IMG/VR virus record: IMGVR_UViG_2778261136_000002
Direction: 5' to 3' (one strand)
From: a virus
Lineage: Duplodnaviria > Heunggongvirae > Uroviricota > Caudoviricetes
Length of the DNA stretch: 18,807 nucleotides
Positions within the stretch are counted from its first letter, which is position 1. Each line of letters begins with the position of its first letter. The position numbers were made by a program. Below are positions 6,001 to 9,000 of the stretch, one piece after another.

Positions 6001-9000
6001 TTCGTACGCGTTTTAAAGCCGTGAGTCCGAAACGGGTGGACACGCCAGGGCACGGTATGGGGAACCGCTTTCTGCGGGCCGGTGTGGAGGTCGATCGATA
6101 TGGCCGTGCCGTTGCGTACCATATCTGTGAGGATGATTTTCCGTTCTCCGGGAGTGGACGATGGGAACGGATCCCGCGTGAACTTCCCACCGGGCGTCCG
6201 ACCATGCTGCATATTTTCGAGCCGGTGGAGGACGGGCAGACCCGTGGAGCCAATCAGTTTTACAGCGTCATGGAACGGCTGAAGATGCTGGATTCCCTGC
6301 AGGCAACACAGCTTCAGTCGGCCATTGTTAAGGCCATGTATGCAGCGACGATTGAAAGTGAACTTGATACCGAAAAGGCCTTTGAATATATCGCGGGGGC
6401 ACCACAGGGTCAGCAGGATAATCCGCTCATTAATATTCTGGAGAAGTTCTCCAGCTGGTATGACACGAATCACGTGACGCTGGGCGGTGTCAAAATTCCG
6501 CACCTTTTCCCCGGTGATGATCTGAAACTGCAGACCGCGCAGGATTCAGACAATGGATTTTCGGCGCTTGAACAGGCGCTGCTGCGGTATATCGCCGCCG
6601 GTCTTGGCGTTTCCTACGAACAGTTGTCCCGTGATTACTCGAAGGTCAGTTATTCAAGTGCCCGCGCCTCCGCCAATGAGTCGTGGCGCTATTTTATGGG
6701 ACGACGAAAATTTATAGCGGCCCGGCTGGCCACGCAGATGTTTTCCTGCTGGCTGGAAGAGGCACTTCTTCGGGGGATTATCCGTCCGCCACGAGCACGT
6801 TTTGATTTTTATCAGGCGCGATCAGCCTGGTCGCGGGCAGAGTGGATTGGTGCCGGAAGAATGGCCATTGACGGGCTCAAGGAGGTCCAGGAATCGGTGA
6901 TGCGTATTGATTCCGGACTGAGCACCTATGAGAAAGAACTGGCGCTGATGGGTGAGGATTATCAGGACATTTTCCGCCAGCAGGTCAGGGAATCTGCAGA
7001 GCGGGAAAAGGCCGGACTCTCACGTCCGGTGTGGATAGCGCAGGCGTATCAGCAGCAGATAGCGGAGAGCCGCAGGCCGGAAGAGGAGACAACACCACGT
7101 GAGACGTAATCTTTCACACATTATTGCCGCAGCGTTCAATGAACCGCTGCTTCTGGAGCCCGCCTATGCGCGGGTTTTCTTTTGCGCGCTGGGGCGCGAG
7201 ATGGGGGCAGCAAGTCTTTCGGTTCCACAACAGCAGGTACAGCTTGATGCTCCCGGAATGCTGGCTGAAACGGACGAGTACATGGCCGGAGGTAAACGAC
7301 CGGCCCGTGTTTACCGGGTGGTGAACGGTATTGCTGTACTGCCGGTGACCGGCACGCTGGTGCACCGGCTGGGCGGTATGCGGCCATTTTCCGGAATGAC
7401 AGGCTATGACGGCATTGTCGCCTGTCTTCAGCAGGCAATGGCAGATAGCCAGGTGCGGGGCGTACTGCTGGACATTGACAGTCCGGGCGGGCAGGCCGCC
7501 GGCGCGTTTGACTGCGCTGACATGATTTACCGCCTCCGTCAGCAGAAGCCGGTCTGGGCACTGTGCAATGACACGGCCTGTTCTGCAGCCATGCTGCTGG
7601 CGTCGGCCTGCTCCCGACGGCTGGTTACCCAGACATCCCGTATCGGCTCCATTGGCGTGATGATGAGCCATGTCAGCTATGCCGGTCATCTGGCGCAGGC
7701 CGGTGTGGATATCACGCTGATTTATGCCGGGGCGCACAAGGTGGATGGCAATCAGTTTGAAGCGTTGCCGGCAGAGGTTCGCCAGGACATGCAGCAGCGG
7801 ATTGATGCGGCGCGCCGGATGTTTGCCGAAAAAGTGGCGATGTATACCGGGTTGTCTGTGGATGCGGTCACGGGAACAGAGGCCGCCGTTTTTGAAGGTC
7901 AGTCCGGCATTGAGGCCGGGCTGGCGGATGAATTAATCAATGCGTCGGATGCCATCAGCGTGATGGCTGCGGCGCTGAACACACATGATACAGGAGGCAC
8001 TATGCCGCAATTAACTGCAACGGAAGCCGCCGTGCAGGAGAACCAGCGAGTGATGGGGATCCTGACATGCCAGGAAGCGAAAGGACGTGAACAGCTTGCC
8101 ACGATGCTGGCAGGACAACAGGGCATGAGCATTGAACAGGCCCGGGCGATTCTGGCCGCGGCAGCACCACAGCAGCCGGTGGCATCCGCGCAGAGTGAAG
8201 CCGATCGCATTATGGCGTGTGAAGAAGCGAACGGTCGTGAACAACTGGCGGCAACGCTGGCGGCGATGCCGGATATGACGGTGGAAAAAGCCCGCCCGAT
8301 CCTGGCTGCTTCACCGCAAGCGGATGCAGGCCCCTCACTTCGTGATCAGATTATGGCTCTGAGTGAGGCGAAAGGGGCTGAGGCGCTGGCTGAAAAACTG
8401 GCGGCGTTTCCCGGAATGACTGTGGAGGCTGCCCGAGACATGCTGGCCTCATCGTCGGATAAAGCAGAACCGGTCTCTGCATCCACAACCGCCCTGTTTG
8501 AACGGTTCATGGCGAACCATTCACCGGCAGCGGTGCAGGGTGGCGTGTCACAGGCGTCAGCAGACGGTGATGCGGACGTGAAAATGCTCATGGCCATGCC
8601 ATGAAGTCAGTGCTGACCATCAATACGAGGTTTTAACAATATGGTGACGAAAACCATCACTGAACAGCGTGCGGAAGTACGTATTTTTGCCGGTAATGAT
8701 CCGGCTCACACTGCCACAGGCAGCAGCGGGATTTCTTCTGCAACACCGGCTCTGACGCCCCTGATGCTGGATGAAGCCAGCGGGAAACTGGTGGTCTGGG
8801 ACGGACAGAAAGCCGGTAGTGCGGCTGGCATACTGGTACTGCCGCTTGAAGGCACAGAGACGGTGCTGACCTATTACAAGTCGGGGACCTTTGCGACGGA
8901 GGCAATCCGCTGGCCTGAACGTGTGGATGAACACAAAAAGGCCAACGCCTTTGTCGGCACAGCCCTGAGTCACGCGGCGCTGCCGTAACACGTTATCAGG

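Follow-up and report, generated by a model that had tools for sequence, protein, structure and literature searches.

The window analysed here, an 18,807-nucleotide stretch of a caudoviricete genome (IMG/VR record IMGVR_UViG_2778261136_000002), is the late morphogenesis region of a lambda-like Escherichia coli prophage. Between the lambda-family portal gene and the genes for the decoration protein and the E-type capsid protein, it carries on the plus strand an open reading frame (ORF) encoding 501 aa (7099-8604; ORF list), the homologue of lambda C and of phage 21 gene 5, in which an S49 head-maturation protease is fused to a scaffold region. In the scaffold region a small unit is repeated three times, and the whole repeat is contained in a predicted second gene that is nested in the same frame. 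The GTG start of the ORF overlaps the end of the portal gene. Over its full length the ORF is 95.4% identical in nucleotides to phage 21 gene 5 (megablast), with 95% amino acid identity, and the head maturation protease profile phrog_53 matches it end to end (E 7e-224). The Peptidase_S49 domain (Pfam PF01343, E 3e-35) comprises aa 146-293 (7534-7977, plus strand), and the SppA structures 3rst and 4kwb match aa 77-289 (E 1e-15). Ser162 and Lys214 lie in conserved columns and align with Ser166 and Lys218 of lambda C, which we take to be the catalytic nucleophile serine and the general-base lysine. The ORF is the homologue of lambda C, a combined S49 protease and Nu3 scaffold gene.

The core repeat peptides are found at aa 317-355, 370-405 and 417-452 (nt 8047-8163, 8206-8313 and 8347-8454), that is, inside the region 8044-8470 in which the preliminary description of this DNA had placed three tandem, diverged copies of a motif of about 45 aa. 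Pairwise BLOSUM62 local scores between the units amount to 76-101 compared with 22-25 ± 4.5 for shuffled sequences (z = 12-17), and none of 2000 shuffles matched the observed scores, so that this part of the description is confirmed. The motif size was also roughly right, with unit starts 53 and 47 aa apart and a unit length of about 41-45 aa. A profile hidden Markov model (HMM) built from 17 units detects three domains in the window protein and in gp5 of phage 21, and exactly one in lambda C. On the plus strand, unit 1 spans aa 313-357 (8035-8169; domain E 2e-19), with a longer first helix from about aa 307, unit 2 spans aa 366-406 (8194-8316; E 1e-22) and unit 3 spans aa 413-453 (8335-8457; E 2e-20). 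Units 1 and 2 are connected by linker 1, QQPVASAQ (8170-8193, plus strand), which is predicted to be disordered, and units 2 and 3 by linker 2, QADAGP (8317-8334, plus strand). The C-terminal tail, aa 454-501 (8458-8601, plus strand), contains one predicted helix (TTALFERFMANHSP) and the hydrophobic end KMLMAMP. The invariant positions of the unit are A-x-G-R-E, L-A, P-G-M-T/S and Q-A; in unit 3, KGAE replaces the near-invariant KGRE.

Within the window protein the copies share 53-65% nucleotide and 47-61% amino acid identity. Tandem Repeats Finder reported no array in the repeat region, which holds no exact repeat longer than 15 nt, the longest near-exact direct repeats being 13-15 nt. Because the copies are so diverged and lack long exact repeats, the repeat is old, in frame and not an assembly artefact. 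An old, in-frame origin had been supposed beforehand. Pfam-A gave no match over aa 313-453; the one hit that reaches into the C-terminal region is DUF7518 at aa 260-314 with an E of 0.064, which falls short of its own cutoff. When the nested protein and the unit profile were compared by sequence with the PDB, noise alone was returned (Lac repressor E 0.45, haemoglobin E 0.019).

An AGGAGG Shine-Dalgarno (SD) sequence at 7992-7997 (plus strand) stands just before the codon of Met302, from which a nested in-frame gene of 200 aa would be read (8002-8604, plus strand), the homologue of phage 21 gene 6 and lambda Nu3. In both phage 21 records, M81255.1 and OL657228.1, the same SD sequence is annotated as the putative ribosome-binding site (RBS) of gene 6, and the nested gene maps onto the in-frame internal coding sequence 'gp6' or 'scaffolding protein' of these records. 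In addition, phrog_8399 'head scaffolding protein' (131 positions) matches the nested region in three stretches. An equivalent AGGAG or GGAGG with ATG is present in lambda (nt 5342), in an E. coli allele with four units and in a distantly related locus (P0158), both of which are described below. We infer that the conserved internal SD and ATG form an in-frame start from which the scaffold protein is made. Since the internal RBS and ATG at 7992-8002 precede them, all three units fall inside the nested gene and are thus common to the protease and the predicted scaffold product. In lambda, RefSeq starts nu3 at nt 5132 (201 aa), whereas the ATG at nt 5342 (131 aa) is the conserved start and has the strong AGGAG; in our lambda locus L003 (NC_001416) these are positions 2333 and 2543. 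The length of the PHROG scaffold profile, 131 positions, equals that of the lambda product from nt 5342, and the RefSeq start of lambda nu3 may be an over-extension. As a further observation, OL657228.1 contains a pair of 'CII binding site' annotations (ttgynnnnnnttgy) that lie on the minus strand within the nested scaffold gene; they correspond to 8004-8017 and 8238-8251 of the window and are bare matches to a degenerate consensus within coding sequence.

The three-unit repeat was already annotated in phage 21 in about 1992 and is not new. GenBank record M81255.1 contains three repeat_regions within gene 6, 'Tri1 box', 'Tri box' and 'Tri3 box', with the remark 'function unknown; putative'; in window coordinates (offset +5598) they lie at 8069-8172, 8209-8319 and 8350-8463 and overlap units 1-3. 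The preliminary interpretation is thus correct in the main, but not as to novelty, the triplication being the normal state of phage 21-type head modules. The paper behind M81255.1 is said to be that of Smith and Feiss in 1993 (Gene 126:1). A search of the accessible literature for phage 21 together with Nu3, scaffold or triplication yielded nothing relevant, and prior knowledge of the Tri boxes is taken here from the GenBank feature table. Genes 5 and 6 of phage 21 (preconnector gp5 and scaffold gp6) share with the window the internal RBS and ATG and the three units in the same positions. They differ from it by a patch of about 180 nt over unit 3 (8299-8478), in which the window is about 19% diverged from phage 21. 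In these 180 nt, which comprise unit 3 and the preceding linker, 35 of the 71 mismatches between the two C genes are found; a second, lesser group of 9 is seen at 7939-7998, immediately upstream of the internal start. For unit 3, dS against phage 21 is about 0.92 compared with about 0.07 over the protease domain, and dN/dS is 0.16. The patch resembles a short segment replaced by recombination with a more distant allele. The window allele is nearest to PhiR12-type phages (96.6%), and the 603-nt nested scaffold region is 100% identical to that of E. coli 2014C-4135.

To judge the selection acting on the region, the ratio of non-synonymous to synonymous substitution (dN/dS) was calculated by the Nei-Gojobori method for the window against the alleles of phage 21, an O157 prophage and Gifsy-1. 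The three units pooled gave 0.23, 0.23 and 0.12, respectively, and the protease domain 0.16, 0.17 and 0.16; the tail gave 0.30-0.68, and the linkers are fast-evolving, with replacements as well as insertions and deletions between lineages. All three units are kept by purifying selection at the protein level, like the protease domain. The Gifsy-1 homologue of gpC in Salmonella has the same architecture and head module as the window, with three positionally orthologous units. The units of the window are most similar to the units in the same position of the Salmonella allele (78%, 78% and 64%). As units cluster by position across the E. coli and Salmonella alleles, the sequence comparison indicates that the triplication predates the split of these alleles.

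A match to the 603-nt nested gene is present in 1870 of the 5426 complete E. coli genomes, mostly at 90-95% identity, and covers at least 80% of the gene's length in 1866 of them. About one in three of these genomes has the three-unit allele, which is thus an ordinary one. A tblastn search with one unit against 50,697 phage records hit 191 places in 152 records. Among the matches listed, 19 records have three places, and all of these belong to phage 21 (2 records), PhiR5, PhiR12, PhiR57, PhiR63, ev017, 4A7, 1W, 3W, D2, Lambda_4C10 and Gifsy-1; one record has two places, and the rest have one, including phi80, N15, HK225, mEp237 and Stx1a phages. Beyond the matches listed, the place totals fit one place per record. 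Because a word-indexed homologue search returned mostly fragments, it served for finding variants, and diversity was assessed by searching 1.84 billion cluster representatives exhaustively with the profile. In this search 829 proteins carry the unit, nearly always once; of the best 143 new representatives, one unit is found in 133, two units in 7 and three in 2. The unit normally occurs singly, and the triple copy marks the lineage of phage 21 and Gifsy. With regard to the O157:H7 ECP19-2498 prophage (L007 2545-2808), we note that its three-unit C gene is intact and that the adjacent capsid gene is annotated as a truncated pseudogene fused beside a tail gene; in many of the 1866 genomes the allele may therefore reside in a defective prophage.

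The comparison of copy number across lambda-like C genes that the preliminary description had recommended thus gives a natural series of one to four units, with the single copy being usual: lambda, phi80 and N15 have one, deletion variants two, the window three and about 104 E. coli genomes four. Three-unit alleles were also found among Salmonella and metagenomic homologues. The four-unit allele of strain SA53-3 (WP_096934546.1; L006 2128-3744) is intact, encodes 538 aa and lies in a normal head module with terminase, portal, S49, decoration, capsid and FI genes; matches to it over at least 80% of the query were obtained in 104 of the 5426 complete E. coli genomes. It shares architecture and head module with the window but differs in length and in the 81-92% mutual identity of its units 2-4. 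Given this identity, the sequence points to recent amplification or homogenisation in the four-unit allele. Two-unit variants are represented by only a handful of sequences in the homologue search. In P0017, P0021, P0022, P0012/P0011 and P0101, which are natural deletion variants of the three-unit allele, unit 2 is cleanly lost, fused into a hybrid or partially deleted. One of the junctions is an in-register hybrid of units 1 and 2, in which MSVEQAR is followed by PILAASP (MSVEQARPILAASP); in P0101 the protease domain is joined directly to the end of unit 2.

Two-unit proteins also occur in distant lineages, and the sequences of P0158, P0104, P0105, P0184 and P0191 indicate that duplication of the unit recurred independently. 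P0158 (L008 5001-6410) is a distant S49 protease in which two units are parted by a PTPPTPPTPP linker and which has its own GGAGG and ATG. Its head module consists of gpA terminase, portal_2, S49, HDPD and Phage_cap_E genes and is followed by baseplate V/W/J genes; the locus combines a lambda-like head with genes for a contractile tail.

Lambda C (NC_001416, 4418-5737) is 57% identical to the window protein in amino acids, and 59% over the protease part. It contains one unit, at aa 349-399 (E 4e-16 with the unit HMM), and the alignment agrees with this; the single copy that had been stated for lambda C/Nu3 was therefore correct. Lambda and the window also have in common the position of the gene, the equivalents of the conserved Ser and Lys and the logic of the nested start. 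In contrast to the window, a low-complexity stretch of about 50 aa precedes the single unit of lambda, and the nested product from the conserved SD and ATG has 131 aa instead of 200 aa. The earlier supposition that the triplication alters scaffold length is in this trivial sense true. The tails of lambda and the window cannot be aligned significantly, as 664 of 3000 shuffles reach the score. We dropped one candidate, a vestigial second unit in lambda for which MAFFT placed 'DRLMQGAPA..PLAAGNPASDA' on the start and end of unit 2, because 400 of 3000 shuffles reach its score. We found no sign that the triplication changes capsid size or capacity, since the genomes of three-unit phages (42.9-54.4 kb) bracket that of lambda (48.5 kb) and the capsid protein of the window has the same length as lambda E and is 61.7% identical to it. 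In an interaction map of lambda, contacts of Nu3 with E, with itself and with C were found, while Nu3-B and a role of Nu3 in portal incorporation are listed from earlier work (PMC3224144).

Structure prediction of the repeat unit gave a confident result. For a single unit, AlphaFold2 with the 17-unit alignment yields a three-helix bundle with a predicted local distance difference test (pLDDT) value of 87.4; its helices span residues 2-11, 19-26 and 33-43, and residues 13-15 form a short turn. For the whole nested protein (21 homologues) the three-helix pattern appears three times at pLDDT 70-80, with a predicted template modelling score of 0.27; the helices of unit 2 are at residues 66-71, 80-87 and 94-103 of this model. 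The lowest block-mean pLDDT values in the repeat region are those of residues 101-110 (62) and 51-60 (56). Linker 1 (residues 56-63) and segments of the tail fall below 50, and linker 2 is the next-lowest stretch. A tail helix is predicted at residues 160-173, in which F166 and M170 are nearly invariant in alignment A4. According to these models, the units are expected to fold autonomously, each as a three-helix bundle, and the bundles would be arranged on flexible linkers like beads on a string. The invariant positions of the unit are read as its hydrophobic core and helix caps, and conservation alone therefore reveals no binding face. Tandem three-helix-bundle binding domains of the staphylococcal protein A type are a structural analogue only. 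The scaffolding protein of P22 carries at its C-terminus a helix-turn-helix coat-binding domain in an otherwise disordered scaffold (PMC11565965), and the likeness to the window, a small helical module in an otherwise disordered scaffold, is one of functional analogy only. Neither a sequence match nor a structural match was found. A two-helix, coat-binding helix-turn-helix at the extreme C-terminus, as in P22, is not what the window unit presents; unlike the P22 domain it occurs in several copies, has three predicted helices and does not form the extreme C-terminus.

Taken together, we are practically certain that the feature is a phage 21-type triplicated allele of the lambdoid head protease/scaffold gene, and we consider it very probable that the data as a whole are best explained by a protease/scaffold allele of this type with a multivalent array of Nu3 cores. 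One reading frame would give two products, the full-length S49 protease (C or gp5) and the nested C-terminal scaffold (Nu3 or gp6). Their common C-terminal part would hold three Nu3 core domains, separated by short linkers rich in Pro, Ala and Gln and followed by the tail of about 48 aa. The array probably originated by an ancient in-frame tandem duplication, and its copy number probably drifts by unequal or illegitimate recombination between units. For the function of the unit, we propose, tentatively and with somewhat less than even confidence, a role in multivalent interaction. The unit would be a folded interaction module that holds scaffold and protease chains inside the assembling shell. 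This proposal is made because no other element of the scaffold region can be detected across the 829 clusters and because the unit travels with lambda-type portal, HDPD decoration and Phage_cap_E capsid genes, even beside contractile-tail genes. Candidate partners are the E-type capsid protein, other scaffold chains or both; by analogy with lambda (PMC3224144), the E-type major capsid protein is presumed to be the assembly partner of the scaffold. With three units each chain would become multivalent and longer, and a T=7-class capsid would remain unchanged. The protease would be co-packaged through the same contacts as the scaffold, since it shares the array with it.

An alternative which we consider rather unlikely, and which is drawn by analogy, is that the units are spacer or self-association modules, that the tail of about 48 aa binds the capsid protein and that the triplication changes only the reach or the oligomeric state of the scaffold. 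The scaffold of P22 binds its capsid protein via the extreme C-terminus, as do the scaffolds of herpesviruses and of 80alpha. The tail following the last unit is of near-constant length (median 50 aa, interquartile range 45-55, in 57 homologues of at least 380 aa), and F..FM and a terminal L-M/L-x-x-P are conserved in alignment A4. Self-association of the units would fit the Nu3-Nu3 interaction of lambda (PMC3224144). However, the dN/dS values and the failed alignment of the lambda and window tails given above show that the tail is far less conserved than the units, and it is the unit alone that can be detected as a scaffold element across the 829 clusters.

It is also conceivable that copy number is functionally neutral, that a disordered and transient scaffold tolerates expansion and contraction and that three units are a frozen accident of the phage 21 and Gifsy lineage. 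One, two, three and four copies all occur in intact-looking head modules of the lambda type, three-unit phages span the genome size of lambda, and a single copy is found in 133 of the 143 top representatives. Neutrality is nevertheless improbable in our view, as purifying selection, with dN/dS like that of the protease domain, has acted on all three copies from a time before the E. coli and Salmonella alleles split; moreover, two-unit variants amount to a handful of sequences in the homologue search, and the match spans at least 80% of the region in all but 4 of the 1870 genomes. We reject the explanations that the repeat is a DNA-level feature, for example of the opposite-strand CII boxes in OL657228.1, or a sequencing or assembly artefact: the boxes are pattern matches only, the copies are diverged and conserved as protein with dN/dS well below 1, and the same structure is found in 1866 complete genomes and in independently sequenced phages with 19 three-place records.

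Returning to the multivalent interaction module, we speculate, though we think it improbable, that the number of Nu3-core modules, from one to four in phages of E. coli and Salmonella, is a naturally tunable valency dial of lambda-type scaffolds. If so, it would determine the number of capsid subunits or scaffold partners with which each chain interacts, and with this the kinetics or fidelity of assembly, or which particular E-type capsid alleles are compatible. For the annotation of the genome the repeat matters little, as the window contains a standard head module of the phage 21 and Gifsy type. What our analysis adds is incremental, namely the predicted fold, the evidence for selection, the series of one to four copies and the recurrent duplications. 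The unit has no Pfam model and is contained in no solved structure; the copy series together with the predicted bundle provides a ready allelic series for work on scaffold-capsid contact and valency, which is relevant to lambda Nu3.

The other genes of the window, assigned with Pfam, are in the order Nu1-A-portal-C-D(shp)-E-FI-FII. Nu1 lies at 2819-3430, terminase gpA at 3345-5330, the lambda-family portal gene (Phage_portal_2) at 5496-7109 and the HDPD decoration protein at 8641-8988. The major capsid protein of the lambda E and phage 21 gp7 family (Phage_cap_E, E 8e-66) is encoded at 9046-10074 on the plus strand. FI and FII as well as lysozyme and Rz were also found in the window.

Two of the homologues have an unusual context. 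P0191 (L012 5001-5672; GCA_001908235.1 LGHK01000125.1) is a stand-alone two-unit protein of 223 aa downstream of an integrase and small unassigned genes. In the 5 kb upstream no S49 protease, portal or recognisable capsid gene was called, and in PHROG scans none of the neighbouring genes could be assigned to a capsid or protease family. It is followed by an unassigned protein of 298 aa and a PhageMin_Tail protein, and the locus ends about 3 kb downstream. From its gene content the locus could be a compact phage or a satellite-like element, and integrase-bearing small elements with such a stand-alone two-unit protein might tap the capsid assembly of a helper phage via the unit. In P0182 (844 aa), an unrelated N-terminal segment of about 405 aa, which in our assessment resembles a tape-measure protein, is fused in frame to a complete lambda C; this is probably a vector-derived or misassembled sequence and not a natural fusion.

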